In this document: in pieces, positions 3,571 to 18,894 of the stretch
Layout: every line of letters begins with the position of its first letter
Position numbering within the stretch: position 1 is the stretch's first letter
IMG/VR virus record: IMGVR_UViG_2049941000_000011
Reading direction: 5' to 3' (one strand)
DNA from: an uncultured virus (IMG/VR IMGVR_UViG_2049941000_000011)
Lineage: Duplodnaviria > Heunggongvirae > Uroviricota > Caudoviricetes
DNA length: 20,000 nucleotides
Translations under genes and position numbers: made by a program
The notes under the pieces: generated by a model
Database searches by the model: none
Told to the model about the DNA's origin: nothing
What the model saw: only the letters and a program-made list of their open reading frames with translations

Positions 3571-4008
3571 ATGTTTAAAATTAAATTTGGAAATTATTAT
3601 GAACTTTTTTGTGCCAATCTAAACGAAACCAAGATATGTAGATTCGGAAACAAAAAACCAGACTTATTAAATCTGCCAGTGGGCCAGGGACTATGGGTAG
3701 AAAACACTATTGAAGAATGGTGGGACAAATTGAAAGTAGGAAGAATTAAAGCTGACGAATCTAAGTGGTGTAAATGGGCAATTGACGAAATAATAACATT
3801 CATGCTAAAGGTTGAACTTGCAGTGGAGGATGGGGATAAAGTAGCAGATATCAATAAAAAGAAACGTCACAATACAACGCCAGAAGGATATTTTGTTAAT
3901 GCCGCGGCACACACAGAGGATGTTAATTCTCTCATCACTTGTTATTTCTTTATTGGTCGTTATGGCGTAACAGAAATGTCCCTTGTTTGGGATATCCACA
4001 AGAGGTAA
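3571..4008 (+). CDS. hypothetical protein, MFKIK tag (array A)
   Basis: AGGAGGT RBS then ATG 3571; the ORF-track start at 3460 is an unlikely extension. Confidence 0.85.
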   Translation: MFKIKFGNYYELFCANLNETKICRFGNKKPDLLNLPVGQGLWVENTIEEWWDKLKVGRIKADESKWCKWAIDEIITFMLKVELAVEDGDKVADINKKKRHNTTPEGYFVNAAAHTEDVNSLITCYFFIGRYGVTEMSLVWDIHKR

Positions 4009-4013: not shown

Positions 4014-4409
4014 ATGTTTAAGATTAAAAAGCTTGCAACATATGAAGTTATTCAATACTTTTGGTCATCTGGTTCAGGATTCAAACCTGCTAGCACCTTC
4101 ATGGAACTTTTGAAAGAAGTGGAAGTGGAAATAATCCGCGAATTTCGCGGGAGCGGGATGCGCGTGGATGAAGATTTAGCTGATATATTAACAGAGTTTT
4201 GGGAATATGTCGGTAACACCCAAGGATACGCCACTGAAGACAAAATAAAAAAAGAAATTGAAATGCAATATGGGGACTATAAGGCCCGCATCAGGACTTT
4301 TATGTCTGGCTCTGGTAGAACAACAGAATATGTGATAACCATAGATTCGAAGAATTGTAGAATAACACGAGAAATTCATGTAGGAAGGAGGATGCCAAAC
4401 GATGTTTAG
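4014..4409 (+). CDS. hypothetical protein, MFKIK tag (array A)
   Basis: GAGGT RBS, ATG 4014. Confidence 0.85.
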   Translation: MFKIKKLATYEVIQYFWSSGSGFKPASTFMELLKEVEVEIIREFRGSGMRVDEDLADILTEFWEYVGNTQGYATEDKIKKEIEMQYGDYKARIRTFMSGSGRTTEYVITIDSKNCRITREIHVGRRMPNDV

Positions 4410-4782
4410 AATTATTTTTAACAAATGTGTAGAAAAGTATTACGTCACTTTTGGAATAGTAAGGTCTGAAATGACAGACTTAAAGAAAGTTATCAATTGG
4501 CTAAAGATCCGTGTAGATGACATGTTTGGCAGAAGAGGTTGGAAACCTTTATTCGAGAAGTTAGAGAACCATATTAACATAACGCAACACATAAAAAATG
4601 ATTGTTTGGGAGATATGACATTCGAGAATCGAGAGTATAGTATTAAAATACATCATAATATTTATGGTCAGCAAAAAAGGCATCTCCAATACAACATCTG
4701 TTTTTACATTCGTGGAATATTCCAGGATGGGGGAATAGTTATTGTAGAAAGGAAAAGGAGTCCAAAAAAATGTTCAAAGTAA
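4402..4782 (+). CDS. hypothetical protein, MFRII tag (array A)
   Basis: AGGAGG RBS; 8-nt overlap ATGTTTAG with the upstream stop. Confidence 0.85.
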   Translation: MFRIIFNKCVEKYYVTFGIVRSEMTDLKKVINWLKIRVDDMFGRRGWKPLFEKLENHINITQHIKNDCLGDMTFENREYSIKIHHNIYGQQKRHLQYNICFYIRGIFQDGGIVIVERKRSPKKCSK

Positions 4783-5101: not shown

Positions 5102-5440
5102 ATGTTTAAAATAAAGCTTAGAAAATATATAATGACCATAGATGGTTATTCATACGAGCGTTGGACTTTTATAAAAGCTAAGAACGACCTAATGCAACAT
5201 TTATTAGCGAAAGGTATGAAGAATGCTGGTGCAGTCATCCTTCCAACTATAAGAGCTTTAAACTACATTAAAAATATATATGATGGCGTCCCAGAATCCG
5301 AGAATAAAAAACCAGAAGATATAAACATTAAAATGGGTTTAGACGAACCAGATATATATTACTCTGTTAGAATACCTATGAAAAACACTGATGATTATGT
5401 TTTCTTCACAGTAGCAGCAAAGGAGATATCTCATGTTTAG
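5102..5440 (+). CDS. hypothetical protein, MFKIK tag (array A)
   Basis: GAGGAG RBS, 112 aa. Confidence 0.85.
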   Translation: MFKIKLRKYIMTIDGYSYERWTFIKAKNDLMQHLLAKGMKNAGAVILPTIRALNYIKNIYDGVPESENKKPEDINIKMGLDEPDIYYSVRIPMKNTDDYVFFTVAAKEISHV

Positions 5441-5834
5441 AATAATATTTAAAAACGCATTCCACGGATGGAAACCAAAATATAAACTGCATACGGGGCG
5501 AATCTTTGATACAGTCTCAGATCCAATCGTGCAAAGATTGAGCGAATGCTTCTTGAGAATCCCAGATGAGGGTAGTTGGTTACCAAAAAAAGCTCGTCCA
5601 GAATTCTTCATAGCTGTAGCGAACAAATGTGAAAGACCCTACATGGGATTCCCATACTTGATTCCAGCTTCTATAGATTGTTCTTTTTTAGGCGATGCTG
5701 GGGCCGTGAGAAGCAGTATTAAAAAAGGGGTTAAGAGAAAATACCCTTTTCCAAAAGTATTTGGGCCCAAATATTGCACGGTAGAACAACAGATAGAAGT
5801 GCTAAAAAGAATCTATAGACAATGGAGGTTATAA
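5433..5834 (+). CDS. hypothetical protein, MFRII tag (array A)
   Basis: AAGGAG RBS; 8-nt overlap ATGTTTAG. Confidence 0.85.
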   Translation: MFRIIFKNAFHGWKPKYKLHTGRIFDTVSDPIVQRLSECFLRIPDEGSWLPKKARPEFFIAVANKCERPYMGFPYLIPASIDCSFLGDAGAVRSSIKKGVKRKYPFPKVFGPKYCTVEQQIEVLKRIYRQWRL

Positions 5835-5895
5835 GATGTATATTATCTGATTATTGGTAAAAAAATAAAGTCATTGAAGAACAGGAGGTATAGTT

Positions 5896-6159: not shown

Positions 6160-6160
6160 T

Positions 6161-6526
6161 ATGGAAAAATTTAAAATTAAAAATTTATTATTGCTCGAAT
6201 TAATTAATAAAAAGAATGCCATTGAAGATTTATCCAGGGCAATGTCAAAAAACATCCACAACGTCTCAAATGTAGAATTTAAAGCATTCTATAATAAGGG
6301 GCACGGATGGATTGAAGAAAGAATCATAATGACCTACCGCGGAGGGGCTATTGCAGTAAGAAATGTAAATATCAATTCACTTATCTGTGACTATGAAGAG
6401 GCAATGAAACTTGCCCGTGGCGGGTATTACGATGAGGTTGAAGGATATAGAAAGATGTTAGAGAACGAGAACTACATTGATATCCTGGAAAACCTAAATG
6501 AATTTTCACCAGAGGAGGTCTATTAA
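6161..6526 (+). CDS. hypothetical protein (starts MEKFKIK)
   Basis: AGGAGG RBS, 121 aa. Confidence 0.8.
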   Translation: MEKFKIKNLLLLELINKKNAIEDLSRAMSKNIHNVSNVEFKAFYNKGHGWIEERIIMTYRGGAIAVRNVNINSLICDYEEAMKLARGGYYDEVEGYRKMLENENYIDILENLNEFSPEEVY

Positions 6527-6527
6527 G

Positions 6528-6743
6528 ATGAAAGTCAAAACATTAATTGCAAAGTTGCGTAAGATCGCACAAAAGAATCCTGATGCCCAGGTGTTGGGAT
6601 TGGGAGATGAAGATGCTGGAGCAATCTATGATGTTAGTTACTATGAGAAGTGCACAGAAGATGAACTTCCATATGATGGAGGTGGATGCACAGACAGATT
6701 CTTGGGCAAAGACATTGTTGTCTTGAAAGGAGAATGGAACTAA
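6528..6743 (+). CDS. hypothetical protein
   Basis: GGAGGT RBS, ATG 6528 (MKVKTLIAKL). Confidence 0.75.
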   Translation: MKVKTLIAKLRKIAQKNPDAQVLGLGDEDAGAIYDVSYYEKCTEDELPYDGGGCTDRFLGKDIVVLKGEWN

Positions 6744-7024
6744 TGAACAACGAACGCAAATTAGAATGCATCGCAGATCTCGTGAAGAATTACCTTAACG
6801 ATAAGAAGGAATATTCCAGGATCCGTAACAATATGGTTTGGTATAGAGAATCAATGAAGGAGAACCAGGGCGTGGATGTCACTCCAGAACAAGCATTCAT
6901 GTTCGTGATGCAAAGCCCAACCAGCATCTATCAAGATTTGACCATCGCTGAACAAAAGGAAGTAGCTGCAAGTTTATGGGCAGCGCTTGTTAGAAAGAAC
7001 TATAGTTTAACCAGGATTTGGTAG
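6743..7024 (+). CDS. hypothetical protein
   Basis: AAGGAG RBS, TAATG overlap, MNNERKLE start. Confidence 0.75.
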   Translation: MNNERKLECIADLVKNYLNDKKEYSRIRNNMVWYRESMKENQGVDVTPEQAFMFVMQSPTSIYQDLTIAEQKEVAASLWAALVRKNYSLTRIW

Positions 7025-7036
7025 AAGGAGAATAAT

Positions 7037-7429
7037 ATGCTTAAAGTAAAAGTAACTCATGAGTATGAACTCGATCATACATTATTAACAGATATCTTAT
7101 CAACGGCTCTTACAGGTAACGACCTCTGGACTGTTGATTGGGATCCAAAAGATTCGAAGGCCATGAAGGCGAATCATCCTGAAATTACCGATTGGTGCAT
7201 AGAAGATGTTCTTGCGGGATTGCTTGAAGACGGCAAGACCTTTATCTTGATAGACAACGAAGAAGGTAAAGAACACACCGTAACGGCAGAAATGTTTGCA
7301 AATGGCATTGCCTTGTATGAAAAAGACCATGGCACTATTCAAAGTATCATGGAAGATGCAGACTTTGATTTATGGGATGGCGATGCGGTATTGCAACTAG
7401 CAGTATTTGGGGAGGTAATTTATGGATAG
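7037..7429 (+). CDS. hypothetical acidic phage protein
   Basis: AAGGAG RBS; ends DAVLQLAVFGEVIYG. Confidence 0.8.
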   Translation: MLKVKVTHEYELDHTLLTDILSTALTGNDLWTVDWDPKDSKAMKANHPEITDWCIEDVLAGLLEDGKTFILIDNEEGKEHTVTAEMFANGIALYEKDHGTIQSIMEDADFDLWDGDAVLQLAVFGEVIYG

Positions 7430-7634
7430 AGAGAAACTTTACGAAGCTATTGACAACAATACACTGTTTGATTTCATTGCTAATGAATACGACGACATGA
7501 CCAAGTATGAATTGAAAGAAGTTCTTTTAGCCGTGCTTGGAGTTGGATATGACGGATGTCACAGCGAAGAAGATGAGCGTGCCTGGATGGAACTCATCTA
7601 CAACGAATTACATGATTACAGGGAGTTTTATTAA
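7422..7634 (+). CDS. hypothetical acidic protein
   Basis: GGAGGT RBS, 8-nt overlap. Confidence 0.8.
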   Translation: MDREKLYEAIDNNTLFDFIANEYDDMTKYELKEVLLAVLGVGYDGCHSEEDERAWMELIYNELHDYREFY

Positions 7635-7636
7635 TT

Positions 7637-7963
7637 ATGATGACAGCCAAAGAAAGAAAAGAAATGAGAGAAAAGTTCTTTAAAGACTTTGATATCAGCG
7701 CTGATTCAAGTAAAGATGCAGGAGTGGGCATATTGATTGCCCACCACTACATCAGTTTGGGTGAACGAGTAATACAGACAATAACCGAAGAGGATATTGA
7801 GAGGGCTTACAAGGATGAAGTGCAGAAGCAAAAAGATGCGGAAGCGAAGGGGCTCGTATATATGGTAGAGCCCGATTTCACTAAGTTCGTATTAACAGCC
7901 TGTGTGGCATTATATAAGTTGCCATCCGAAGTAAAATATGATATAATTAAGAAATTAATATAA
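7637..7963 (+). CDS. hypothetical protein
   Basis: GGGAG upstream, 108 aa, tight packing. Confidence 0.75.
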   Translation: MMTAKERKEMREKFFKDFDISADSSKDAGVGILIAHHYISLGERVIQTITEEDIERAYKDEVQKQKDAEAKGLVYMVEPDFTKFVLTACVALYKLPSEVKYDIIKKLI

Positions 7964-7996
7964 TGTAGAGATGAAGAAGTCTCTGGAGGTAAAATT

Positions 7997-8359
7997 ATGT
8001 TCAAGATTCCTAACATTGAATACAAACTTAATAAGGAAATAACAAATGAACAGCTAGTTGCAGCAGAAACCTATTATATGACCAACACAATATTTCAAAT
8101 TCGAGACGGTAGGAAGAGAACTTTCTTTATAACAAATAAGAATCCCGAAAAGAAACCAGACGGCACGATTGAGTTCCGTGAATGCAGCATGATTGACAAA
8201 ACTTGTTTTGAAAAGGATGGTAGTTATCACGGCGCCCTACTCGCAGGGTTTAAATATTTTATCTTCAGAGACGAACTCGGTGGTGACCCCGAAGGATGGT
8301 ATTCTTCAGTGTATGACAGTAAAGATATAGTGGAAGCAGGTGATGAATATGAGTTTTAG
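7997..8359 (+). CDS. MFKIP-tagged protein, paralog 1 of 3 (array B)
   Basis: GGAGGT RBS; TIEFRECSMIDKTCFEKDG...YFIFRD motif shared with the next two genes. Confidence 0.85.
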   Translation: MFKIPNIEYKLNKEITNEQLVAAETYYMTNTIFQIRDGRKRTFFITNKNPEKKPDGTIEFRECSMIDKTCFEKDGSYHGALLAGFKYFIFRDELGGDPEGWYSSVYDSKDIVEAGDEYEF

Positions 8360-8696
8360 AATACCTAAAATCCACAAAAAACTTACACCTCTGTCCGAGG
8401 AACAACTCAAGATATTAGATGCGAGATTCGGTAGCGAAAACGTAATACTAATAGAGAAGCATGGCGTATTTATATGTGACAAACAAACTAAACACAGTAG
8501 AGCCAAGACAGTTGAATTAAGAGACTGTAGAAAAGTGGATGGCACCTGCTTTACCAGCACGGGGGAATACGCAGGAACATATGTTGGCAAACAACAATAC
8601 TTCATTATGAAAGACATGCTTGACGATAGCGAATTGTTTCTACAATACTATTATGATAGAGAAATAATAAAGGAGGGATATGAACATGAGCTTTAA
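8349..8696 (+). CDS. MSFRIP-tagged protein, paralog 2 of 3 (array B)
   Basis: AGGTGA RBS; TVELRDCRKVDGTCFTSTG...YFIMKD. Confidence 0.85.
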   Translation: MSFRIPKIHKKLTPLSEEQLKILDARFGSENVILIEKHGVFICDKQTKHSRAKTVELRDCRKVDGTCFTSTGEYAGTYVGKQQYFIMKDMLDDSELFLQYYYDREIIKEGYEHEL

Positions 8697-9030
8697 GATT
8701 CCTAGGATTCAGATTAGAAGACAACACAGGGTCTTTATATCTGAGAGCAATTTTCATAATTTACTAGACGCTGGGCATATAGTAATAAATGTTATGCTGC
8801 GAGGAACTTTTGTGTGCTCAGCTATGACTAAGCATGAAAAAGAAGCTACGATTGAATTTATTAACTGTAGACGAGTTGATGATAGCTGTTTTGCAGAAGA
8901 CGGTTTCAGAGATATGTATTGTCCTGAACCAGCAAAAAGATTTATTTTTCAAGATGCACAAGCAGAAGACCGCACTGCATACAGTTCAATCTATTATACA
9001 GATGAAATAGTAACAGAAAGAGAGGAATAG
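8686..9030 (+). CDS. MSFKIP-tagged protein, paralog 3 of 3 (array B)
   Basis: AGGAGG RBS; TIEFINCRRVDDSCFAEDG...FIFQD. An in-frame ATG at 8680 is an alternative start. Confidence 0.85.
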   Translation: MSFKIPRIQIRRQHRVFISESNFHNLLDAGHIVINVMLRGTFVCSAMTKHEKEATIEFINCRRVDDSCFAEDGFRDMYCPEPAKRFIFQDAQAEDRTAYSSIYYTDEIVTEREE

Positions 9031-9032
9031 TT

Positions 9033-9404
9033 ATGTCTTTTAAAATTAAACCATTAGAAAAGCCAACGAAATTTTTCGTAACAAGCAGAAGAATCAGCAA
9101 TAAGATATACGAAGTATTGAAGGCTCATGGTCTTCATATATGTTATTCTCGCTACTGGGATACTGGCGACGGAGAACAACTTGAAAATAAGAATGTCTTC
9201 GCAAATTTTGCTAATACTTTCATTTTTGATAAAGAACCTCGCTGGGAAGAATCATGGACAAATCCAAAAACTGGCTTTGTAGAAAAGTGGATTCCTGATG
9301 TAAACAAATATTTGATGGAAGACGAAGTAGTACAGGACCAAGAATTTTATAAATATCTTAGTGATATTTTAGAGAAAGAAGGTGTAGAAGAATGTTTAGA
9401 TTAA
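9033..9404 (+). CDS. MSFKIK-tagged hypothetical protein (array B)
   Basis: GAGG RBS, 123 aa. Confidence 0.85.
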   Translation: MSFKIKPLEKPTKFFVTSRRISNKIYEVLKAHGLHICYSRYWDTGDGEQLENKNVFANFANTFIFDKEPRWEESWTNPKTGFVEKWIPDVNKYLMEDEVVQDQEFYKYLSDILEKEGVEECLD

Positions 9405-9655
9405 AGATAGACGCGGTGCATTTATTAACCTGGAGGAGCCCGTCCACTGGGGGAGTTAAATTTGTAGGATGGGACAGCAAAAGAAAGATTTATTCAACCA
9501 ATTATTACGAGAACGTGGGTTTTGGAAAAAAGACAACCTGGGTAAAGACCAGAAAAGAAATTAACAATAAAGTTAAAGAACTTATATCCAAGGAATACCA
9601 TGAAGTTGAATATCTAAGAGAAATTCACATATTTGGTCATGTGCATAATGAATGA
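9392..9655 (+). CDS. MFRLK-tagged hypothetical protein (array B)
   Basis: AAGGT upstream, 13-nt overlap with the upstream gene. Confidence 0.8.
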   Translation: MFRLKIDAVHLLTWRSPSTGGVKFVGWDSKRKIYSTNYYENVGFGKKTTWVKTRKEINNKVKELISKEYHEVEYLREIHIFGHVHNE

Positions 9656-10097
9656 TAGGATTTTAGCTGGAATCGTGGTTGTCGGTGCGATTGTCCTGGG
9701 GGCGGTTGCACTGATAATCAGTCTATTAATAGCTACACTCATTGATGAGAGAAAGGAGAATATGAGTAATATGGATAGACGTTATGTTGAGGGGCACGTA
9801 TCTGCCCAAGACCCTGAAGGTATTCAAGGAGCTTTGTATAAAGTTGACGCCGATGATGGTGATGTAATTAAATATTTATACATTGACAGCATTGAAGACT
9901 ATAGGGTACAATATTGGAGCTTTAATGAAGATAAAGAGCTCATAGATGGCGGTGAAATTGACACGACATCTACAGACCCAGAAGACATCCTGGATGATGT
10001 TAAGAGCTGGGTCGGCTTAGACGGAGCCACTCTTGAAAAAGAAGAAGACTGGCTGGACATCAGTGACCTGGAAGATTGGGGTTTCACTGGAATGTAA
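9648..10097 (+). CDS. N-terminal TM helix plus acidic domain; internal in-frame start at 9762
   Basis: ATGAATGA overlap at 9648; TM ILAGIVVVGAIVLGAVALIISLLIATLI; AAAGGAG followed by ATG at 9762. Confidence 0.7.
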   Translation: MNDRILAGIVVVGAIVLGAVALIISLLIATLIDERKENMSNMDRRYVEGHVSAQDPEGIQGALYKVDADDGDVIKYLYIDSIEDYRVQYWSFNEDKELIDGGEIDTTSTDPEDILDDVKSWVGLDGATLEKEEDWLDISDLEDWGFTGM

Positions 10098-10124
10098 AAA
10101 AAAGAAGAAAGAAGGAAATAAATT

Positions 10125-10478
10125 ATGTTACAAATTAGAACAGGATGTTTTGAAACAAATAGCTCAAGCACACACAGCTTAATCATGTGCTCAGAAAATC
10201 AATATAAAGACTGGATAGATGGAAAACTCTATTATTGTCAATGGGAAGAGTGCACAGGAGCTAAGAAAGGGCATTTCTATACCAAAGAAGAAGCTTTAAA
10301 ATTAGCACAAGGGTGCAAATGGTATGATGAAGAAGACGGATTACGTAGCGTGGGTCTATACACATTTGATGAATGGGAAGAAGACTCTTGTGTTGAAGAA
10401 ACAAAAAAATATGTTACCGAAAGTGGGGAAACAATTCTCGGATTATTAGTAGAAGAGGGTTGCTTCTCGGATTATTAG
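10125..10478 (+). CDS. phage protein with N-terminal RxGxFETNSSSTHS motif
   Basis: MLQIRTGCFETNSSSTHSL is a motif recurrent in uncharacterised phage proteins; AAGGA RBS. Confidence 0.8.
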   Translation: MLQIRTGCFETNSSSTHSLIMCSENQYKDWIDGKLYYCQWEECTGAKKGHFYTKEEALKLAQGCKWYDEEDGLRSVGLYTFDEWEEDSCVEETKKYVTESGETILGLLVEEGCFSDY

Positions 10479-10502
10479 TAGAAGAGGGTTGCTAGTAGAA
10501 GA
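10435..10502 (+). repeat. 29-bp perfect tandem duplication plus partial third copy
   Basis: TTCTCGGATTATTAGTAGAAGAGGGTTGC at 10435-10463 and 10464-10492, then TAGTAGAAGA. Confidence 0.9.
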
Positions 10503-10540
10503 ATAAGCGACTATGGATGTGGAAGAAAGGAGAAATGGAC

Positions 10541-11341
10541 ATGGAAGCTAGAAATTTATTAATAGGTCTATCCATTAAACACAATGGTGACTGGGAAAAA
10601 ATCTATAAAGCCGTATCTAGTAAAGATGTTGAGGAACTGGAATCATTCATCGAGCAATTTGAAAAGTCGGGATGCAAAGCGCTGACTATGCTGGACAAAG
10701 AATATCCAGATAGTTTAAAACATAGTTATCAGCCACCGTTCGTATTATTTTACGAAGGAGATTTATCATTGCTTGACCACATAGACAGTAATCTAGCAGT
10801 AGTTGGGACTCATGAACCTACTGGATATGGTATTGAGATGACCCATAACTTAGTGGGAGAGTTGTCCAGGAGTTACAACATCGTAACAAGTATCCGTCCT
10901 GGAATAGATAGTATAGCCTGTGATGCGGCGCTGTCCAATGAATATGGTCATGTCATTGCAGTGGTGGCAGGAGGGTTCGGATGTAAAACAAAATACAAGA
11001 ACTGGGACGAGCTTAAAAAGAATCATCTTGTATTAACAGAATACTTTGGAACCGAAAAACCAGAAGTCCATAAAGGATGCATGGGTAAAGATAGAATCAT
11101 TGTTGGTTTATCCAAAGGGCTACTGGTCATTGAAGATACAAAAACTGGACGCTCAGCAGTAACAGCAAACCTTGCATTAAGCAATGGCAGAGAGATTCTT
11201 GCGGTTCCAGGAAGAGCTGGAGAAGATTCATTATCAAATTCTTTAATTAGAACAGGAGCTGTCCTGGTAGAAACAGCTGAAGATGTTAAAACAGAATTAG
11301 AGGCGTTTGTAATGAGTAGCACGCCAGAGGAGGTAAAATAA
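10541..11341 (+). CDS. dprA: DprA/Smf DNA-processing protein homolog (non-canonical motifs)
   Basis: AAAGGAG RBS; DKEYPDSLK, PPFVLFYEGDLSLL, LAVVGT, GIDSIA, IAVVAGG, LVLTEY, RIIVGLSKGLLVIE, GREILAVPG, NSLIRTGAVLV are DprA signature blocks. Confidence 0.85.
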   Translation: MEARNLLIGLSIKHNGDWEKIYKAVSSKDVEELESFIEQFEKSGCKALTMLDKEYPDSLKHSYQPPFVLFYEGDLSLLDHIDSNLAVVGTHEPTGYGIEMTHNLVGELSRSYNIVTSIRPGIDSIACDAALSNEYGHVIAVVAGGFGCKTKYKNWDELKKNHLVLTEYFGTEKPEVHKGCMGKDRIIVGLSKGLLVIEDTKTGRSAVTANLALSNGREILAVPGRAGEDSLSNSLIRTGAVLVETAEDVKTELEAFVMSSTPEEVK

Positions 11342-11343
11342 TT

Positions 11344-11922
11344 ATGAAAAAAGATAGAAATGTAATTGCCAACGACATTGCTGCTAAACTTAAGGGCGGC
11401 AAAAAACTGACCAAGAAAGAAATTGAATTCATTTGTGACGCCATTACAGACCCTGAGGGCGAGTTCTGTAAAAGAGAAGCTAAATTCAGATTACTAGAAA
11501 TACACAACTGCAGCACAAAAATGGCAGAAGCACTCGAACCATATGCCGAAGAATCCATTAGAGATACTTTTGATTACACCGAGTATTTCTATGATGCATT
11601 AGACGATAATTTAAGGAATGATGTTTTGGACAAAACATTTAAAGTCAAGATTCATGTAAAGTCCATCGATTATGCAATCGAAGATGAAGACATCGTAGAC
11701 CTGGTTGATGGTGATGACGAAGCTGCGTTTGAAGCGAAGAGACAAGAAATCTTAGATGGGCTTCCAAAGCAATTAGACTTTGTACTTAAGGGAATTCCAG
11801 GTGATATTGATGATGAATCATTTGGGGACGAGGTTGCAAATGAAATTTCAGAAAGAACCAACTGGTTGATTTATAATTGTGATTTTGATGTTGTTGAAGC
11901 TATAGAGGAGGAGGAAGACTAA
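11344..11922 (+). CDS. hypothetical acidic protein
   Basis: GGAGGT RBS, 192 aa. Confidence 0.8.
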   Translation: MKKDRNVIANDIAAKLKGGKKLTKKEIEFICDAITDPEGEFCKREAKFRLLEIHNCSTKMAEALEPYAEESIRDTFDYTEYFYDALDDNLRNDVLDKTFKVKIHVKSIDYAIEDEDIVDLVDGDDEAAFEAKRQEILDGLPKQLDFVLKGIPGDIDDESFGDEVANEISERTNWLIYNCDFDVVEAIEEEED

Positions 11923-12152
11923 TGAAAACCGAAAAATTTTATCTTTATTTAGACCAACCTTCTTATATTATAGCCAGGGATACACCTTATGGCAGGGTCG
12001 TGATTTCTGGGACATATAAACATAAGGATAATGCCGTGAAGGAACTTAAGAAAAGAATCGCTTTTGCTAAGAACCAGGATGACGGCTTATCTGGATGGAG
12101 TGAACCATATCTCTTAGAGTTCACACCAAGTTCCAGGAAGGTAGAGTTATAA
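11922..12152 (+). CDS. hypothetical protein
   Basis: GGAGG RBS, TAATG overlap. Confidence 0.75.
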   Translation: MKTEKFYLYLDQPSYIIARDTPYGRVVISGTYKHKDNAVKELKKRIAFAKNQDDGLSGWSEPYLLEFTPSSRKVEL

Positions 12153-12175
12153 AAAAAGAAAGAGGAGGAGTGAAT

Positions 12176-12760
12176 ATGGCAAATGATTGTACGTTTGATG
12201 TAGTGGTTCGTGGATCAAAAGAAGAAATTGATATTTTTTACAACCGCTGTTTAAAAGCTAAAGAAAACGGAACCAAATCACACAGCTGGTGGGCTTATGC
12301 GATATTACAAGAACATGGATATAGCACATACACCATCGAGCACAAAGTAGGATTCATCGGGGGTCACCTGGATAATTTGGGCGAACCAATCGAAGATGGA
12401 GACGAATATTTCTTAACAATCAACATGACAACACGATGGTCACCAATGATCACGGCATTTAACAGGATGTTAGGAAATTACACCACGCTAAGAGCAGTAT
12501 ACTTTGCTGAGGAACCTGGAATGGGCATTTATGTCAATACAGATAAAAGTGGCAGAGACTTCAATGTTGAATATTGCATAGAAGACTACGATGAAGATGG
12601 CTGCGGGTCAGAATATTTTGGTTCAGATGAAGAACTCAAAAAATTTATAAAAGATGTTTATGGCAAAGATCTCAAATCAATTCCGCCAGATGATGATGCA
12701 GAAATTAAAATCAACAAAACAAAAACAATTTGTTTTCATAGGTTCGCAAAACAATATTAA
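12176..12760 (+). CDS. YubB/ferredoxin-like domain protein (putative)
   Basis: MANDC-x6-RG start, TTRWSP and YFAEEPGMGIY motifs resemble the YubB/DUF1281-like family; GAGGAG RBS. Confidence 0.55.
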   Translation: MANDCTFDVVVRGSKEEIDIFYNRCLKAKENGTKSHSWWAYAILQEHGYSTYTIEHKVGFIGGHLDNLGEPIEDGDEYFLTINMTTRWSPMITAFNRMLGNYTTLRAVYFAEEPGMGIYVNTDKSGRDFNVEYCIEDYDEDGCGSEYFGSDEELKKFIKDVYGKDLKSIPPDDDAEIKINKTKTICFHRFAKQY

Positions 12761-12773
12761 GGAGGTAAATAAT

Positions 12774-13007
12774 ATGGAAGATGTTGAAGGAAAGAAAATC
12801 AAAGAAGGGGACTTGATTCTTATTCCAGTCTTGATAAGAAAAATGTGCTACAGCATATTGGACAGTTTCCGAATCGTTAAAGTTACCAGGATGACAGAGA
12901 AAAGTATGTGGGTCATAGACCGCAGTGGCAAAGGAAAAGAGTTTTTAATCCGCCCTGATTCTAAAAAGATTTACAGAATTTCTAGAAAAAATTACAAAAT
13001 CACTTGA
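12774..13007 (+). CDS. small SH3/KOW-like beta-barrel protein (putative)
   Basis: AAGGAGGT RBS; DVEGKKIKEGDLILIP...VKVTRMTEKSMWV. Confidence 0.7.
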   Translation: MEDVEGKKIKEGDLILIPVLIRKMCYSILDSFRIVKVTRMTEKSMWVIDRSGKGKEFLIRPDSKKIYRISRKNYKIT

Positions 13008-13032
13008 CGCCCTGGAAAACATGTTATACTAT
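13004..13032 (+). promoter_or_regulatory. sigma70/sigmaA-type promoter for the FtsK-containing unit
   Basis: TTGACG (13004-13009), 17 bp, TACTAT (13027-13032); an overlapping TGnTATACT is also present; CCTGG occupies the same spacer position as in the 3037 promoter. Confidence 0.7.
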
Positions 13033-13056
13033 AAAGGTAACAAAAGAGGAAATAGT

Positions 13057-13692
13057 ATGAAAAAAAACAGAAAGAGTGGTATCAAAATAATGGCAGAATC
13101 ACTTTCACAATCATTAAGAAACCATGTAAATGCAATGATGGCGAGGGTCATGTATCGCCGCGATGACGAAGAGTTATTAGAAAGCTGGGTCATGTATGAG
13201 ATGACGTCGGATGCAATGCTTGATTCCTATGCAGGATGTAACGGATTAATCGAATGGACACAAGAAGCTTTGAAAACATATGACCATGAAAATTGGATAT
13301 CGAAAGCTTGTCTTAAAAATTTAATCAGAATCCTAAAGACCCATCAAACAAGTCTCACGAAGACAGATGAAGATTGGAAGCTTCTTAAGGAGGACTTCCA
13401 TAAAGAGGCTCAGCGAAGAGCTGATAAATTTTATCCTGACGCCGCATATGAAAGTATCCTGGAAAGATTGAATAAATATGGCAGCACCGTCATGGGTTAT
13501 CATATGTATGAATCCCTTGGAGAACAAAAAGTAAAAGAAGACCTCGCCGAAAGAGGAATCAAAAACGCCAAGATTGAAGTAACCAATTATAATGTAACAA
13601 AGGATTGCTTCGAAGACAAAGCGGTGGTGAATGGTCACTCCATGTGGGTGCTCACACCAATATTACCAATTGTAAAAATCAGCACCTGCTGA
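13057..13692 (+). CDS. hypothetical protein
   Basis: AGAGG RBS, ATG 13057; the ORF-track start at 13021 lies inside the promoter. Confidence 0.8.
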   Translation: MKKNRKSGIKIMAESLSQSLRNHVNAMMARVMYRRDDEELLESWVMYEMTSDAMLDSYAGCNGLIEWTQEALKTYDHENWISKACLKNLIRILKTHQTSLTKTDEDWKLLKEDFHKEAQRRADKFYPDAAYESILERLNKYGSTVMGYHMYESLGEQKVKEDLAERGIKNAKIEVTNYNVTKDCFEDKAVVNGHSMWVLTPILPIVKISTC

Positions 13693-13705
13693 TGGAGGTG
13701 AAAAT

Positions 13706-14032
13706 ATGGGATTTAAGATTCCAAAGTTGAATGGGATGTTAGTCTACGTAAGATGGGTTAAAGACGAAAAAGCATCCGCAGCAGAATATGCATTCAAGAT
13801 TAACAAAGATGGAGACATGCCGACAGTCGGAAACCTATATGCAGTTCGTGGCGAAAACAGCGGCACGGTCGTCGTAACAAGATTGGGAGCCGGACGCCGC
13901 GATGAGGATTCGGGGCGCTTACAGGTAACAAGAGAAGATGGAACAAAATTCAATATAACAAAACAAATGATGTTCAATCAAAAAGAATCAACAGCAACTG
14001 CAACAAAATATACTGGAAGATTCACATTATAA
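13706..14032 (+). CDS. MGFKIP-tagged hypothetical protein
   Basis: GGAGGTG RBS, 108 aa, beta-rich; directly upstream of the FtsK gene. Confidence 0.85.
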   Translation: MGFKIPKLNGMLVYVRWVKDEKASAAEYAFKINKDGDMPTVGNLYAVRGENSGTVVVTRLGAGRRDEDSGRLQVTREDGTKFNITKQMMFNQKESTATATKYTGRFTL

Positions 14033-14057: not shown

Positions 14058-15488
14058 ATGGCGGTTACCAAGAAAAAAGATCTTGGCCATAAGATTGTTG
14101 ACCAATTCTCATCGATGGGAATACAGGTGAAACTAGCTAAGACAGTAGAATCGCCAAGATTCACAACTTACTATTACAATATGCAGGATCCGCTGCAGAT
14201 CCTCAAATTAAAGGATAAGCACGTAGATGTAATCCGTGACTTCAACAAAGTTAACGTCGTATACGGCCATCCTGAGGGCTATAGCTTTTCCCTGATGATT
14301 CAAAAGAAGAAAGTATCAACACTCAAAGTTTCTAAGCTTAAACAGCCTAAAACGCAATCGCCACACATCAAGGTGAATATCGGTCTAGATCTCTTAAATA
14401 AAGATGTAATCCTGGATTTCGATAAAACGAATCACCTGTTGGTAGCTGGAACTACAGGTAGCGGGAAGAGCGCCTTCATCAATACGATTCTATACACGTT
14501 AATTAAGGCTGTAGACCAGGAAGATTATGAACTTAAGCTTATAGATCCGAAGAGAGTTTCCTTCAACGCATTCAAGTCCCTGAAAAACGTGGAATTGATC
14601 ACTGAGACGGAGCAAGCATCAGATCTATTCACGCAGCTAATCAAGCTAATGGAGTTCCGTTACGAATATATGGAAAGCCATGGTGAGACAGATAAGAACA
14701 TCTTCAAGCCAACATTTGTCGTAGTAGATGAGCTAGCGGAGTTGATGTTGGTAGACAGAGCTAATTGTGAAGATAAGCTTATCAGGCTCCTACAGAAGGG
14801 ACGCCAGGCGAACATCCACATCATCCTGGCAACACAGCGCCCAACAACGGATGTAATCAGCGGCTTGATCAAAGCCCAGTGCGATACCAGGGTATGCCTA
14901 AAGATGGCCAGTGCTAAAGATAGCATTACGGTTATCGATAAAGGTATTGGGCAAACGCTCTTGGGTCGTGGAGATGGATTCATAAAGTATCCTGATAAAC
15001 CAGATGAAATCAGGTTCCAAACCGCTTTGGTTACAGATGCTGCGATATCCAAGCAAGTATTGTCCATGAAGCAGAAGAGTCGATTCGTAGAAGACGCCCT
15101 GGAAGAAACAACATGTTCCCGTGCCGCGGGGGCTGCAGCAATGATAGCGATCAGCAACATCCGCGTGAAAGCCGCAGTGGACAAATGCATCCGCAATATA
15201 TCTTCTTGGGGATTCAAGCTTCCAAAGAACTTATCCTGGGCAGAACAACAATCAAGTTCCTGGCTGGGATTGACAAAATTCCAGGATCCATGTATAATAT
15301 TAAATACTAAGCTTAATGAGCAAACGGATCCAATGATTGACATCGTCATCTACCATGAACTGGGACACATCATTGCGGGGCCCGCAGCTGGTCACAAAGG
15401 TAGATGGAGAGAAGTAATGAACGTGATTCATGAACACACAGGGTATGTATTCCATGAATATGTATATGCCCGCATCACCGAATCATGA
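14058..15488 (+). CDS. FtsK/SpoIIIE-family ATPase fused to a C-terminal SprT-like zinc metalloprotease domain
   Basis: HLLVAGTTGSGKS (Walker A), LIDPKR, FVVVDELAELM (Walker B), LLQKGR, HIILATQRP, LLGRGDG; C-terminal HELGH...GHKGRW (SprT-like HExxH plus downstream His). Confidence 0.9.
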   Translation: MAVTKKKDLGHKIVDQFSSMGIQVKLAKTVESPRFTTYYYNMQDPLQILKLKDKHVDVIRDFNKVNVVYGHPEGYSFSLMIQKKKVSTLKVSKLKQPKTQSPHIKVNIGLDLLNKDVILDFDKTNHLLVAGTTGSGKSAFINTILYTLIKAVDQEDYELKLIDPKRVSFNAFKSLKNVELITETEQASDLFTQLIKLMEFRYEYMESHGETDKNIFKPTFVVVDELAELMLVDRANCEDKLIRLLQKGRQANIHIILATQRPTTDVISGLIKAQCDTRVCLKMASAKDSITVIDKGIGQTLLGRGDGFIKYPDKPDEIRFQTALVTDAAISKQVLSMKQKSRFVEDALEETTCSRAAGAAAMIAISNIRVKAAVDKCIRNISSWGFKLPKNLSWAEQQSSSWLGLTKFQDPCIILNTKLNEQTDPMIDIVIYHELGHIIAGPAAGHKGRWREVMNVIHEHTGYVFHEYVYARITES

Positions 15489-15902: not shown

Positions 15903-15934
15903 CAGGAGTAGCCCCGGCTGGGACCGAAGGACAC

Positions 15935-15964
15935 AAAGGGGAAGGCTAAAAACCTTCCTCTTTT
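15935..15964 (+). terminator. rho-independent terminator
   Basis: AAAGGGGAAGG-CTAAAAA-CCTTCCTCTTTT hairpin with T-run after the last + strand gene. Confidence 0.75.
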
Positions 15965-16426: not shown

Positions 16427-16873
16427 CTAGAGCTTCAGCGTGGCCTTTGGTGGTTGCCTGTATATGAATCCCAGTTCGTCCCTGACGCACTCTTCTATCC
16501 ACTTTTCGACATCTACGTGTCCACGTCTGGTAATTATAGGGTGACTGTGGTCTTTGCCCTCGTGACTAAGCGAAGCCGATAATGATATCTCGTAATCGCC
16601 CGTGATATGTTGATAGATTTCTTCAGGATCAGGATATAAAACTAATTGATAGTCTGGTAAAGGATTAATTGTTCCGTCTCTCGCAACATCGTGTGTCACC
16701 TTATATATAACAAATTGTTGTTGTTCATCATTTTCATCAAGAAACAGAACAGAAGCGCCCGGATGACCAAAATTCTCTCTGATCGCATTCATCACGCTAT
16801 GCGCCCATTCTTTATCTAATGTAATAATATCACCAACCTGATATCGTCCTTTTAACATTTTAATTTTAAACAT
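16427..16873 (-). CDS. MFKIK-tagged protein with KOW/SH3-like start (array C)
   Basis: GGAG RBS; YQVGDIITL; 8-nt ATGTTTAA overlap. Confidence 0.85.
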   Translation of the reverse strand: MFKIKMLKGRYQVGDIITLDKEWAHSVMNAIRENFGHPGASVLFLDENDEQQQFVIYKVTHDVARDGTINPLPDYQLVLYPDPEEIYQHITGDYEISLSASLSHEGKDHSHPIITRRGHVDVEKWIEECVRDELGFIYRQPPKATLKL

Positions 16874-17231
16874 CTTTATCTCCCACGTATTTTCCGTCTG
16901 TGTCGGTTACTTCATCAAGCAATCTACCGTAATATCCGTATTCGCGTCTCCACTCCTCTTCGCTGATCTTTTTTAAATCCTTGCGATGGAAACAATACTT
17001 AATTCCATTATAATCCCTGATGTCCACCAAATAATGACACGAGGCTCCCTCACTAGGATCTGCCTGGACAACTATTCCAATATATGTCTTGGTGTTTATA
17101 ACTTCCTTGCTATCCAGCACCAAAGTATTCATCACGCCATCTTCGCCGCCTTGAGAGCCGCGTGTGACCTGCTCTTTACATATAACTATGTCGCCTGGTT
17201 GTAATGGCCCGAAATCTTTAATTTTAAACAT
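16866..17231 (-). CDS. MFKIK-tagged protein with KOW/SH3-like start (array C)
   Basis: LQPGDIVIC...YIGIVVQ...YLVDI; 8-nt overlap. Confidence 0.85.
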   Translation of the reverse strand: MFKIKDFGPLQPGDIVICKEQVTRGSQGGEDGVMNTLVLDSKEVINTKTYIGIVVQADPSEGASCHYLVDIRDYNGIKYCFHRKDLKKISEEEWRREYGYYGRLLDEVTDTDGKYVGDKDV

Positions 17232-17736
17232 GATCTTTCCATAACCCCCTTGCTTGTAATAAAGCTATACAATCGTTGCCAACCCTACCTAGATTGTGAG
17301 ATTTGCGCCACTCCATTCTTCCAAGAGGAATATTCATGACATGAGTCTCATCACATTCCAGATCAGGCGCACGCACGATATCACTAAACTTATATCTAAC
17401 GACGCACTTATCTCGATCTACATCTCTTCTTTTGAGCAGACTCGTGCTGAGAATGACGTTGCGGCAATTCTCCTTAATACTTTCGTAAGAGCACTTCAAT
17501 TTATTACATGTCACAACAGTGTCCGCCAAATATTTAATAATATCATCAGCAATAATGACATCGTATGTATCTACTGACACAAAAATCGGTGGATCCCATC
17601 CTTTTTGTTCCTGCAGCTCACGGCGATAGGTTTTCGCCTGGACAATCCCCATAATAACACACGATGGATCTACATCATCTTGCCAGCACACAACGTCACC
17701 GACTTCAGCTTGGCTCCTAAATTTGATCTTAAACAT
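17224..17736 (-). CDS. MFKIK-tagged protein with KOW/SH3-like start (array C)
   Basis: AAGGT RBS; AEVGDVVCW...IMGIVQ...YDVII. Confidence 0.85.
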   Translation of the reverse strand: MFKIKFRSQAEVGDVVCWQDDVDPSCVIMGIVQAKTYRRELQEQKGWDPPIFVSVDTYDVIIADDIIKYLADTVVTCNKLKCSYESIKENCRNVILSTSLLKRRDVDRDKCVVRYKFSDIVRAPDLECDETHVMNIPLGRMEWRKSHNLGRVGNDCIALLQARGLWKDHV

Positions 17737-17738: not shown

Positions 17739-18008
17739 TTATTTACCTTTCGCCTCACTTGCATCGTCTAGCGTCCCTTCTAATGCTCGTCTAAGTAATT
17801 GTGTCTTTCCACTACAACGAGCACCCACGAACACAGTATACGTGCCGCCGCTGCCAGCGCCCATTGATCCCCAGGTCTTCATGAAATCTTCCCATTCCTT
17901 CGCCATGTTGTCAATCTTGGTGTGGGAGAATTTCTGTTTACTCTTCGGCAGGGCCCTTATTTTTTGTTGCTTCTTAATTTTGTTTTCTATAGATGGAATT
18001 TTAAACAT
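17739..18008 (-). CDS. MFKIP-tagged 89-aa protein with an orphan Walker A motif (array C)
   Basis: GAGG RBS, ATG 18008; TVFVGARCSGKTQLL near the C-terminus. Confidence 0.8.
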   Translation of the reverse strand: MFKIPSIENKIKKQQKIRALPKSKQKFSHTKIDNMAKEWEDFMKTWGSMGAGSGGTYTVFVGARCSGKTQLLRRALEGTLDDASEAKGK

Positions 18009-18010: not shown

Positions 18011-18343
18011 CTATTTTTTCCTCTTTATCTGAAGAGTGGCATCGGTCCATTTTCTTTTTAGCTCTTCATATTGATCAACCTCATGAACAACAGCCACATC
18101 TTCAGCAACTTTTTTCGCGGCGGCGTTCATCATTGCTTGATATAGTTTTATTTGATAATCTTTATAATCAGAATCTATAGCTATATCGACAGATGGAGTG
18201 ATACTGCTCTCAGCACATCTATCTGCTGCCTCAGGATCTATCTCTACCTCTATATCGGGCTTACTCCATCCCGCCAGTCCTTGCATGACTTCTATAAGTT
18301 TTCTTCTTCTGATCTCTCGTTCTATTTTTGGAATCTTGAACAT
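18011..18343 (-). CDS. MFKIP-tagged hypothetical protein (array C)
   Basis: GAGGT RBS; MFKIPKIEREI resembles MFKIPSIENKI of the next gene. Confidence 0.85.
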   Translation of the reverse strand: MFKIPKIEREIRRRKLIEVMQGLAGWSKPDIEVEIDPEAADRCAESSITPSVDIAIDSDYKDYQIKLYQAMMNAAAKKVAEDVAVVHEVDQYEELKRKWTDATLQIKRKK

Positions 18344-18515
18344 ATTCTCTTACCTCTATTGGTGCTACATCTAGTGATGGGTATGTCTCTTTATATAGAC
18401 GGCTAGCTCCATGGAAACCCAGGATCCTGTAGAACTCTACATATATCTCGCCTTCTTTACGCCCACCTTCAATCACACATTGTATTTTTCTCTCGAACCT
18501 TCTTATTCTAAACAT
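18261..18515 (-). CDS. MFRIR-tagged hypothetical protein (array C), overlapping the next gene by 83 nt
   Basis: Starts 1 nt after the upstream TGA; reads through the next start because ATGTTCAAG has no in-frame stop. Confidence 0.7.
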   Translation of the reverse strand: MFRIRRFERKIQCVIEGGRKEGEIYVEFYRILGFHGASRLYKETYPSLDVAPIEVREYVQDSKNRTRDQKKKTYRSHARTGGME

Positions 18516-18516: not shown

Positions 18517-18894
18517 TCAGAACCCTTTGAAATGCATCACAAGCTTCATATATTCTTCTTCAGATAAATCGAAGTTCTTACAGCTATCTTTATATATAGG
18601 TCCAAGTTCATAATGAGCATGTGTCGGTGAATCGCTATCTACGGTAATGCTATTATGCTCTATAGGAAGCAAGTCACCTCTAGGGAGAAAGGAATCACCA
18701 CCCGTACCCCAATCTATATCGAACGTTGCACCCATCTGAGGATCCATAGAATCTATTTGATAGGCAGCTGGAGTTATATGTTTAACGATACATCTATATA
18801 GGGTTCCACCTGTATCTCTAATCATAGGGTTAATTTTAAATATATATACAAGTTCCCCGATTTTGAATTGATGACGTCTATAGATTTTAAACAT
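18517..18894 (-). CDS. MFKIY-tagged protein with KOW/SH3-like start (array C, first gene)
   Basis: GAGGT RBS; FKIGELVYI...YRCIVKHITPAAYQI. Confidence 0.85.
   Translation of the reverse strand: MFKIYRRHQFKIGELVYIFKINPMIRDTGGTLYRCIVKHITPAAYQIDSMDPQMGATFDIDWGTGGDSFLPRGDLLPIEHNSITVDSDSPTHAHYELGPIYKDSCKNFDLSEEEYMKLVMHFKGF

Follow-up and report, generated by a model that had tools for sequence, protein, structure and literature searches.

A recurrent M-F-[KR]-[IVL] start peptide on small phage proteins, and a possible role for methionine excision in keeping its register

The internal proteins of phage T4 are diverse and share only an N-terminal targeting sequence (CTS); their likeness to the proteins described here lies in small, diverse and fast-evolving phage proteins being addressed to one destination by a short N-terminal peptide (PMC3012670). 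ClpX reads unstructured N-terminal degrons, and the N-degrons of ClpXP, such as the lambda O tag, consist of short unstructured stretches at the N terminus of otherwise unrelated substrates, including one phage protein, and are read in the axial channel of the unfoldase (PMC12723719). With respect to the maturation of N termini, PMC12930335 reports that Met is cleaved by methionine aminopeptidase (MAP) when the P1' residue is Ser, Pro, Thr, Ala, Gly or Val and little cleaved when it is Phe, Lys, Arg or similar, Ser and Gly being in the best cleaved tier and Phe in the least cleaved, with a basic P3' residue weakly favourable. Start-proximal peptides have also been linked to translation: Verma et al. 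2019 obtained the highest reporter yield with Lys or Asn followed by Ile (K/N-I) at codons 3-4 or 4-5, with any synonymous codon (PMC6920384), and the SKIK tag (Met-Ser-Lys-Ile-Lys) boosts translation via the nascent peptide, not via its codons (PMC10192921).

In the window, i.e. the whole stretch of 20,000 nucleotides analysed, 19 small phage proteins (84-170 aa) out of 43 ORFs have the start peptide M-F-[KR]-[IVL] at their extreme N terminus, 15 of them directly and four shifted by one residue (Table 1). About half of the small genes in this uncultured rumen phage carry this tag. Among 237 control loci (3.44 Mb), 72 ORFs start in this way, corresponding to 0.42 per 20 kb; the highest control count at one locus is 4 and comes from an internal repeat. 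Apart from the trio 7997/8349/8686, no convincing similarity was found among the tagged proteins once their first 8 residues were removed; as with the T4 CTS, a common N-terminal peptide is present on otherwise unrelated small phage proteins (n=19, one trio excepted).

Table 1. Coordinates of the tags, of the genes with one extra residue, of the paralogue g7997 and of the misfit g6161
Feature	Coordinates	Strand	Length (aa)	Remarks
MFKI of g3571	3571..3582	+	145	
MFKI of g4014	4014..4025	+	131	upstream ATG 4008: SD spacer 0
MFRI of g4402	4402..4413	+	126	contains stop of g4014
MFKV of g4770	4770..4781	+	105	
MFKI of g5102	5102..5113	+	112	
MFRI of g5433	5433..5444	+	133	contains stop of g5102
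g6161, MEKFKIK	6161..6526	+		not a tag member
g7997	7997..8359	+	120	MFKIPNIEYKL; without the extra Ser; paralogue of g8349/g8686
g8349	8349..8696	+	115	starts MSFRIPKIHKKL (MSFRI); ATG AGT TTT AGA ATA; Ser codon AGT; start overlaps stop of g7997 (ATGAGTTTTAG)
g8686	8686..9030	+	114	starts MSFKIPRIQIRR (MSFKI); ATG AGC TTT AAG ATT; Ser codon AGC; start overlaps stop of g8349 (ATGAGCTTTAA), a junction homologous to g8349's own
g9033	9033..9404	+	123	starts MSFKIKPLEKPT (MSFKI); ATG TCT TTT AAA ATT; Ser codon TCT
MFRL of g9392	9392..9403	+	87	
g13706	13706..14032	+	108	starts MGFKIPKLNG; ATG GGA TTT AAG ATT; Gly codon GGA; directly upstream of FtsK/SprT-like gene
MFKI of g16873	16862..16873	-	148	contains stop of g17231 (ATGTTTAA)
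MFKI of g17231	17220..17231	-	121	contains stop of g17736 (ATGTTTAA)
MFKI of g17736	17725..17736	-	170	
MFKI of g18008	17997..18008	-	89	runs on as MFKIPSIENKI; upstream ATG 18050 without SD
MFKI of g18343	18332..18343	-	110	runs on as MFKIPKIEREI
MFRI of g18515	18504..18515	-	84	
MFKI of g18894	18883..18894	-	125	

The tag is constrained in its amino acids rather than in its bases. Phe is invariant across the 19 tags and its wobble base varies (TTT 16, TTC 3), replacements within the tags are limited to K/R and I/V/L, the Lys codons (AAA 8, AAG 6) are the same as in the background, and upstream of the ATG of the tagged genes conservation is limited to SD-like purines. Relative to the window, the tags make excessive use of TTT, ATT and AGA, and 8 of the 19 tags also contain the stop codon of the preceding gene; given the bias of Phe to TTT and of Ile to ATT, together with these overlaps, some nucleotide-level or coupling constraint operates too. 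No residue pattern behind the tag is common to all 19; the Pro class has FKIPxIE, with a common peptide that extends over about 10 residues (FKIPxIExK), and we could match FKIPxIE to no known protease site.

In the trio family, in which g7997 is 30-34% identical to g8349 and g8686, a profile search found 15 distant homologues, 10 of which start at profile positions 16-18, and the tag is present in none of the 14 that were fetched. The tag here belongs to an N-terminal extension of roughly 14 residues that is predicted to be disordered, the AlphaFold model (mean pLDDT 85.6) having values below 50 at residues 3-9 and no secondary structure before residue 17. In at least this one family, the label is a predicted flexible add-on before an older domain; the structure model of g13706 was too poor to use, and the disorder result holds for the trio family only.

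The original prediction started from the observation that the single residue inserted before Phe is always Ser (8349, 8686 and 9033, with three different codons) or Gly (13706), and re-reading of the codons confirms this, all four spacer residues being MAP-permissive. The paralogues g8349 and g8686, which are 34% identical, both have the Ser and differ synonymously in its codon, and g9033 is not detectably similar to the trio. All orthologues seen, the most distant at 67% identity, retain the Ser or Gly (P0002, P0125, P0127-129, P0131-132 and P0146-148); three cluster members of g9033 retain MSFKIKPLEKPT, and the g13706 orthologues at 89, 70 and 67% identity begin MGFKIP, MGFRIL and MGFKIL, respectively. 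With Ser or Gly at P1' in the four spacer genes and Phe at P1' in the 15 direct tags, the MAP rule predicts the mature ends M-F, S-F and G-F, which would make Phe residue 2 in all 19; the earlier arithmetic, in which Phe stays second after Met removal, is consistent with the MAP tiers for these three residues.

The chance of all four spacers being small is 0.003-0.031 under three nulls, i.e. position 2 in untagged window genes (5/22 small), in 990 SD-supported control starts (0.368) and in control M-x-F[KR][IVL] ORF starts (13/31), with the category 'small' having been picked after the data were seen. Since the junctions at 8349 and 8686 go back to a single one that was duplicated, the fair count is three independent events, for which the corresponding range is 0.012-0.074. 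In the nulls, 23-42% of the residues at position 2 are small, so Ser and Gly may have arisen there by chance.

With these results in mind, it may be that the Ser and Gly spacers preserve the register of Phe for a reading anchored at the N terminus, an interpretation that is partly supported, that we favour over the alternatives and to which we give somewhat less than an even chance. The mature free N terminus of the tagged proteins would be read by one common, putative partner that counts from the alpha-amino end and so requires Phe as the second residue; an extra codon would be tolerated only if its residue (Ser, Gly) lets MAP remove Met, which would restore the length (S-F-K-I or G-F-K-I compared with M-F-K-I). 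We infer both the existence of the reader and its measuring from the N terminus, and the Met removal by rule. The pocket measuring from the N terminus that was proposed originally gains from the conservation of Ser/Gly, from the start assignments and from the amino-acid-level constraint, but has only three independent events behind it. No ORF in the window has a conserved tag two or more residues in from the start. The one apparent case, g6161, had been listed in the original prediction as not fitting and indeed does not, but it is no counter-example: its three orthologues read MEKIKIK or MKKIKIK, and since they have Ile where g6161 has Phe, it was dropped from the tag set. That the tag never lies further in, and that g6161 fails, therefore argues for tight N-terminal anchoring. 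The label might serve capsid targeting like that of T4 internal proteins, or as an N-terminal protease-recognition signal. The wider reading, which we consider rather doubtful, is that this phage lineage has an N-terminus-anchored addressing system of its own, in which a flexible peptide has been grafted onto many unrelated accessory proteins, a partner binds at the free alpha-amino group with a need for Phe second, and host Met excision serves to mature the label. A label that is indeed read from the free end would offer an experimental handle on what many orphan phage proteins share: one synthetic peptide, with its N terminus free or blocked, could fish out the reader, and a Ser to Lys swap would switch the label off with the rest of the protein untouched. 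In addition, Met excision would here set the register of a targeting signal in nature.

As in the T4 case, the N terminus is all that the 19 small, mostly unrelated proteins have in common, and in one family it is a predicted disordered add-on; unlike the T4 case, no conserved cleavage site was recognised behind the tag, and the tagged genes have DNA-metabolism genes as neighbours. We saw no sequence likeness between the tag and the T4 peptide, nor is the T4 CTS known to depend on Met excision or on being read from its free alpha-amino end. An unstructured N-terminal peptide, as in ClpX degrons, is predicted in the trio family (pLDDT below 50 at residues 3-9), and the hydrophobic-basic-hydrophobic pattern near the free end would resemble the consensus of ClpX N-motif-1; ClpXP N-degrons are not known to require a set number of residues from the end. 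ClpS binds a free alpha-amino group together with a bulky hydrophobic side chain, for instance that of Phe. Its Leu/N-degron, however, must have Phe, Leu, Trp or Tyr in first place, and identity with the tag was rejected because the predicted mature ends M-F, S-F and G-F put Phe at residue 2 (19/19), unless another putative peptidase trims one more residue.

The register argument depends on the start codons, and it had been cautioned that upstream ATGs exist. They do, g8349 having in-frame starts at GTG 8340 and ATG 8343 and g8686 at ATG 8680, with the ATGs two codons upstream in both genes, and one ENA gene call (P0123) begins at 8343. Were 8343 and 8680 the true starts, the proteins would begin MNMSF, with Met retained (Asn next) and Phe at residue 5. 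This is very improbable given that the SD-like motif lies only 2 nt from 8343 and 8680 compared with 5-8 nt from 8349 and 8686 (for g8686, AAGGAGGG with a spacer of 8 to 8686 versus 2 to 8680), the spacing in other window genes being mostly 4-10 nt; moreover, the protein collection has exact products from 8349, 8686, 9033 and 13706 and no product from 8680. The starts 8349 and 8686 are better supported than the upstream ATGs, with which assignment the database gene calls mostly concur, and even a shift in these two genes would leave 9033 and 13706 untouched. Accepting the starts, the tag may still be a real peptide label that its reader recognises in some way other than by measuring from the free end, with Ser and Gly reflecting shared ancestry and chance, small flexible residues being the least disruptive. 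The reduction of 8349 and 8686 to one duplicated junction, and hence of the spacers to three events, the frequency of small residues in the nulls (P for 3/3 up to 0.07) and the conservation of Ser/Gly at 67-90% identity, which is little above the background conservation of these proteins, all speak for this. It sits less well with the lack of any conserved tag displaced from the start by two residues or more, the failure of 6161 included, and with the retention of Ser in two paralogues whose sequences differ at two of every three positions, and we judge it unlikely.

An explanation of another kind, which we regard as fairly unlikely, is that the tag is an early-elongation ramp or nascent-peptide enhancer, with Lys-Ile in an A/U-rich start lifting the yield of small genes, the mature N terminus being irrelevant and Ser/Gly coincidental. 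The likeness to K/N-I/Y and SKIK starts consists of a Lys-Ile just after the start that acts through amino acids (PMC6920384 and PMC10192921), and 13 of the 19 tags fit the position of the K-I motif (10 at codons 3-4, three at 4-5). The tag is fixed within one codon of the start, the codon over-use and the coupling of 8 tags to the preceding stop point the same way, and in SKIK, too, codon 2 encodes Ser (PMC10192921), with g9033 beginning MSFKIK. The original contention that a translational role would not predict the register holds only in part: the motif window in PMC6920384 permits exactly one extra codon, but the restriction of the spacer to Ser/Gly is indeed not predicted, Lys being the likelier spacer under a translational role because it is the commonest residue at position 2 (0.167, SD-supported control starts). 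The published motif also leaves unexplained the invariant Phe before Lys/Arg and the six off-motif tags (Arg-Ile four times, Arg-Leu and Lys-Val once each), and the roughly 10 shared residues of the Pro class and the 14-residue extension of the trio are more than a ramp needs. Nor does it account for the restriction to small accessory genes, the window's larger genes (DprA, FtsK/SprT, GP88) having no tag; one would expect many phages to exploit a ribosomal property, yet the tag is missing from 44 loci of other phages with FtsK-like genes. The K/N-I/Y and SKIK results are, furthermore, laboratory findings with E. coli reporters, whereas the tag here is natural and genome-wide; if it is a translation enhancer, the engineered SKIK and K-I ramps would have in it a genome-wide parallel from nature that is useful for expression design.

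Whether read from the free end or acting in translation, the tag delimits a functional class among genes that are unnamed in any database. The tagged genes sit among DNA-metabolism genes, and there are no structural genes within the window. Contigs with tagged proteins reach about 140 kb, and the stretch is also found in bovine-gut runs.

The presence in the window of an N-terminal tag, with four genes carrying a Ser or Gly spacer between Met and Phe, is confirmed as an observation. Among the 43 ORFs tabulated, 15 start M-F-[KR]-[IVL], while M-[SG]-F-[KR]-I opens four more (g8349, g8686 and g9033 with Ser, g13706 with Gly; genes are named by start coordinate), compared with 72 such ORF starts in 237 control loci (3.44 Mb), i.e. 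0.42 per 20 kb; the control maximum was four tag-like starts in one locus, itself an internal tandem repeat. The tagged proteins (84-170 aa) have no charge pattern in common, none of the 19 is named by Pfam or PHROGs, and with the first 8 residues removed a detectable relationship (30-34% identity) is left only within the paralogues g7997, g8349 and g8686 (the trio). The original prediction, that Met excision before Ser or Gly keeps Phe at residue 2, is partly supported; it came through the checks made: the start sites stand, the one exception falls away, orthologues keep the spacers, and the tag appears to be a flexible add-on at the peptide level. More noteworthy than the Met-excision register is the tag system itself, about which the register makes a prediction that is sharp, cheap and testable.

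The best Shine-Dalgarno (SD)-like motif lies 5-8 nt before the ATG at 8349 and 8 nt before that at 8686 (AAGGAGGG, -11.2 kcal/mol), but just 2 nt before the upstream ATGs at 8343 and 8680; SD spacers elsewhere in the window are mostly 4-10 nt. The exact products from 8349, 8686, 9033 and 13706 are present in the protein collection, whereas the product from 8680 is absent and 8343 is used by one ENA call, although database gene calls are not fully independent support for starts, since callers use SD models too. The caveat of upstream ATGs that accompanied the prediction was thus checked, with SD spacing and, mostly, the database products favouring 8349 and 8686; given the SD spacing, it is very improbable that the true starts lie upstream. 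The claim of three different Ser codons and one Gly codon as spacers was likewise borne out by the sequence. An in-frame start two codons before a better-spaced ATG recurs in several ORFs (1954 and 12170, as well as 8343 and 8680; MVM.., MNM..), and the annotated longest ORFs at 1954 and 12170 probably start two codons too early, because the SD spacer of their first start is just 1-2 nt.

For methionine aminopeptidase (MAP), tiers of P1' residues have been reported in which Ser and Gly rank among the best cleaved and Phe, Lys and Arg are worst, with a basic P3' residue weakly preferred (PMC12930335). By the MAP rule the mature ends would therefore be M-F, S-F and G-F, and the predicted arithmetic, i.e. 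Phe as residue 2, holds for 19 of 19 tags. The one misfit named earlier, g6161, does carry a shifted Phe in the window (MEKFKIK); however, it is not an exception to the tag, since three members of its cluster read MEKIKIK, MEKIKIK and MKKIKIK. The Phe is thus unconserved, a local Ile-to-Phe difference, and the gene is not counted as tagged. Two other candidates were rejected, namely g7037 (MLKVKV), which has Leu in place of Phe and matches phrog_2355 from residue 5 onward, and the ORF at 19433 (MKFRIR), which is without an SD motif and lies beside an N run. The g3571 and g7037 proteins have weak similarity (E 0.016) and are alike over their first 12 residues; these two may have inherited their beginning with the N-terminus instead of gaining it as an add-on.

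The spacer residues are kept in all orthologues seen. The g8349 orthologue P0002 (82% identity) and the g8686 member P0125 both start MSFKIP, three g9033 members start MSFKIKPLEKPT, and all five g13706 relatives start M-G-F-[KR]-I; the M-x-F starts gathered from relatives, as the prediction proposed, are those of such orthologues. Ser is also kept between g8349 and g8686 despite 34% overall identity, the codon difference being synonymous. The junctions before these two genes are, however, alike (ATGAAY ATG AGY TTT ARR ATW CCT A, each overlapping the stop of the preceding gene), i.e. homologous, and so amount to a single event, which reduces the independent events to three. Three sets served as nulls for how often position 2 is a small residue: the untagged window genes (5 of 22), the 990 SD-supported starts of control loci whose G+C is <0.45 (a fraction of 0.368) and the distinct M-x-F[KR][IVL] ORF starts of control loci (13 of 31). 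Under these, in that order, the probability of three small residues out of three is 0.012, 0.050 and 0.074, and that of four out of four is 0.003, 0.018 and 0.031. The figures fall if the residue must be Ser or Gly (0.147 of control starts), but that category was picked after the data had been seen. The restriction of spacers to Ser and Gly is thus suggestive, not significant, and chance together with ancestry is a live alternative for the identity of these residues, whatever the function of the tag. Overlap with the upstream gene does not obviously force the Ser codon, because the overlapping C-terminal tails of g7997 and g8349 are unconserved in the wider family.

The tag pattern fits selection that acts on the peptide and not on a site in RNA or DNA: Phe is unchanged in all tags while its codon differs (TTT in 16, TTC in 3), replacements are limited to Lys/Arg (AGA, five times) and Ile/Val/Leu, and the DNA upstream of tagged starts has nothing in common beyond SD-like purines. 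The Lys codons of the tags (AAA 8, AAG 6) match the rest of the window (59% AAA). Because the variation sits at wobble positions and the upstream DNA is unconserved, the idea of an RNA operator or a conserved DNA cassette was rejected. There is nevertheless an A/T preference, with TTT, ATT and AGA over-used, and 8 of the 19 tags contain the stop codon of the ORF before them, at +5, +8 or +10 from the A of the ATG; some nucleotide-level or coupling role therefore stands beside the peptide constraint. Six of the eight overlapping stops consist of the last T of the Phe codon with the AA or AG of the Lys/Arg codon (ATGTTTAA, ATGTTTAG, ATGAGYTTTAR). The tag thus doubles as a start/stop junction, and part of the TTT bias may be explained by the overlap.

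Searching 1.84 billion representatives with a profile built from the trio gave 18 proteins (E <= 0.001), three of them the window's own or near relatives. In 10 of the 15 others, the match begins at residue 1-3 of the protein, opposite profile positions 16-18, and in none of the 14 distant homologues fetched is the tag at the start, which falls at the position of g8349 residue 15. An AlphaFold model of g8349 (17-row alignment) has a confident core (mean pLDDT 85.6, pTM 0.74), whereas residues 3-9 have pLDDT <50 and the first ordered element is a helix at 17-27. Because the homologues without the tag start at residue 15 and the N-terminus is predicted to be disordered, the tag of the trio family is read as part of a flexible stretch of ~14 residues that was added in front of an older domain, a conclusion drawn from this one family. 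For the same two reasons, the idea that the tag contributes to the fold of this family was rejected. The g8349 core had no PDB fold match at E <= 0.001, and the g13706 model (pLDDT 40.7) was too poor for use. The family of the trio consists of proteins of ~100 aa (P0149-P0163) in which Cys and Asp residues are conserved; within it, the N-terminal extension is confined to the window copies and close relatives. A class of tagged genes whose shared peptide runs on as FKIPxIExK (the Pro class) comprises g7997, g8349, g8686, g13706, g18008 and g18343; its pattern, F-[KR]-I-P-x-[IL]-[EQHN]-x-[KR], spans ~10 residues and is shared by proteins of four or more unrelated families, encoded on both strands, and g18515 (MFRIRRFERKI) resembles a variant of it.

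That the tag is read in a register anchored at the N-terminus is the reading we tentatively prefer, although it falls short of being probable, with three independent events behind it and Met removal taken from a rule, not a measurement. A role in translation is unlikely, but is to be taken seriously. According to Verma et al. 2019, yields are highest with Lys/Asn and then Ile/Tyr at codons 3-4 or 4-5, whatever the synonymous codon, the shifted motif scoring somewhat lower (PMC6920384); 13 of the 19 tags fit this motif, which allows exactly one extra codon. The register is therefore not unique to Met excision, and the claim that translation would not predict it is too strong. The SKIK enhancer, which starts Met-Ser-Lys-Ile-Lys, is reported to act as a nascent peptide (PMC10192921). 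Against a translation role, Phe is invariant, six tags lie outside the motif, the peptide shared by the Pro class is longer, the extension runs to 14 residues, the larger window genes are without the tag, and the tag is absent from 44 other phage loci.

It is rather unlikely that the tag is a real label with a reader that ignores the distance from the end. A ClpS N-degron as such is excluded because the predicted Phe is residue 2, not residue 1. ClpX N-terminal degrons, one of them on a phage protein, are described as a class of unstructured N-terminal signals (PMC12723719), and the tag is likewise N-terminal and, by prediction in one family, unstructured; the internal proteins of phage T4 are described as a varied set with nothing in common but an N-terminal targeting sequence (PMC3012670). 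The tag can be assigned neither to the ClpX degrons nor to T4-type targeting.

The tag was not found in literature on MFKI in phages or on N-termini conserved among small phage proteins that are otherwise unrelated. DNA patterns of tag pairs matched 32 viral loci, all chance or internal repeat, and 81 metagenome loci with no tag array; a recurrent MFKINIM tandem pair among the latter is part of an unrelated element, which carries two or three such paralogues in tandem on many metagenome contigs (20-166 kb). The four matches to a Pro-class pattern were all chance. By tblastn against phages, g3571 and g16873 had no match, the ESM Atlas gave no match at >=0.9 for g17736, and the homologue search gave only two clusters for g8349 and four for g13706.

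Coordinates of features in the window, with relatives and loci discussed in the text
Feature	Coordinates	Strand	Description
Protein at 1954	1954-2784		No Pfam match; N-terminal ~70 residues like N-terminal region of DprA homologue (38% identity, E 2.5e-10)
g3571	3571-4008		Start MFKIKFGNYYEL
g6161	6161-6526		
g7037	7037-7429		Start MLKVKVTHEYEL
Trio	7997-9030		Tandem paralogues
Spacer codons	8352; 8689; 9036; 13709		AGT; AGC; TCT; GGA
DprA homologue	10517-11341		
FtsK/SpoIIIE ATPase	14058-15488		Fused to SprT-like, metallopeptidase-like C-terminus (HELGH)
Convergent intergenic region	15903-16426		520 bases; AT-rich half, then unusually GC-rich patches
Run of 10 N	~19290-19300		Between last tagged gene and zinc-ribbon-like gene
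Zinc-ribbon-like gene	19600-19953		
Tags holding upstream stop	4402, 5433, 8349, 8686, 4770, 9392	+	
Tags holding upstream stop	17231, 16873	-	
g13706 relatives			Orthologues P0146, P0147, P0148 (89, 70, 67% identity); cluster members P0131, P0132
MFKINIMQ/MFKINIMS paralogues	around 10001-10360 of the metagenome loci		Metagenome loci L113, L116, L119, L121, L125, L142, L145, L155, L173, L175, L191

The window has a G+C content of ~38% and tightly packed genes, on the + strand until ~15900 and on the - strand from 16427 on. Its proteins are present on contigs of up to 139,732 and 142,204 bases (contigs of 139-142 kb carry P0001, P0002 and P0003), the stretch occurs in runs labelled bovine gut metagenome, and contigs from four runs carry a collinear relative with ~90% identity; coverage and RNA contigs from that comparison were left out of the evidence. 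We take the element to be a large uncultured phage, for which the strong SD motifs would suggest a Firmicute-like host. The Pfam-recognisable genes encode a GP88-like protein, a DprA homologue and the FtsK/SpoIIIE ATPase, to which PHROGs added phage FtsK-like families and little more. The protein at 1954 may be a second, diverged DprA-like gene, and the FtsK/SprT relatives P0003-P0017 form a small clade (40-96% identity; P0004-P0010 at 50-74%), several with the same SprT-like Pfam domain.

Megablast among phages and plasmids gave no match to the window. The FtsK/SprT and DprA proteins had no match in viral_contigs, nor the FtsK protein in genome_contigs; its tblastn against phages gave 398 records, all <60% identity, the best 15 of 398 being at 28-31%. 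A 16-sequence FtsK alignment reached <=38% identity among the matches listed in genome_contigs and, in viral_contigs, 44 loci at <=48% identity, with 0-1 MF[KR]I starts per locus. The element and close relatives were thus not found in scans of viral_contigs, metagenome_contigs and genome_contigs (for the FtsK alignment in the last, among the matches listed). Promoter-like sites in the window were not above shuffles (65 versus a mean of 60.9). In the convergent intergenic region, where neither a tRNA nor an Rfam family was detected, summed depth is raised and loose contig ends are numerous in all four runs examined.
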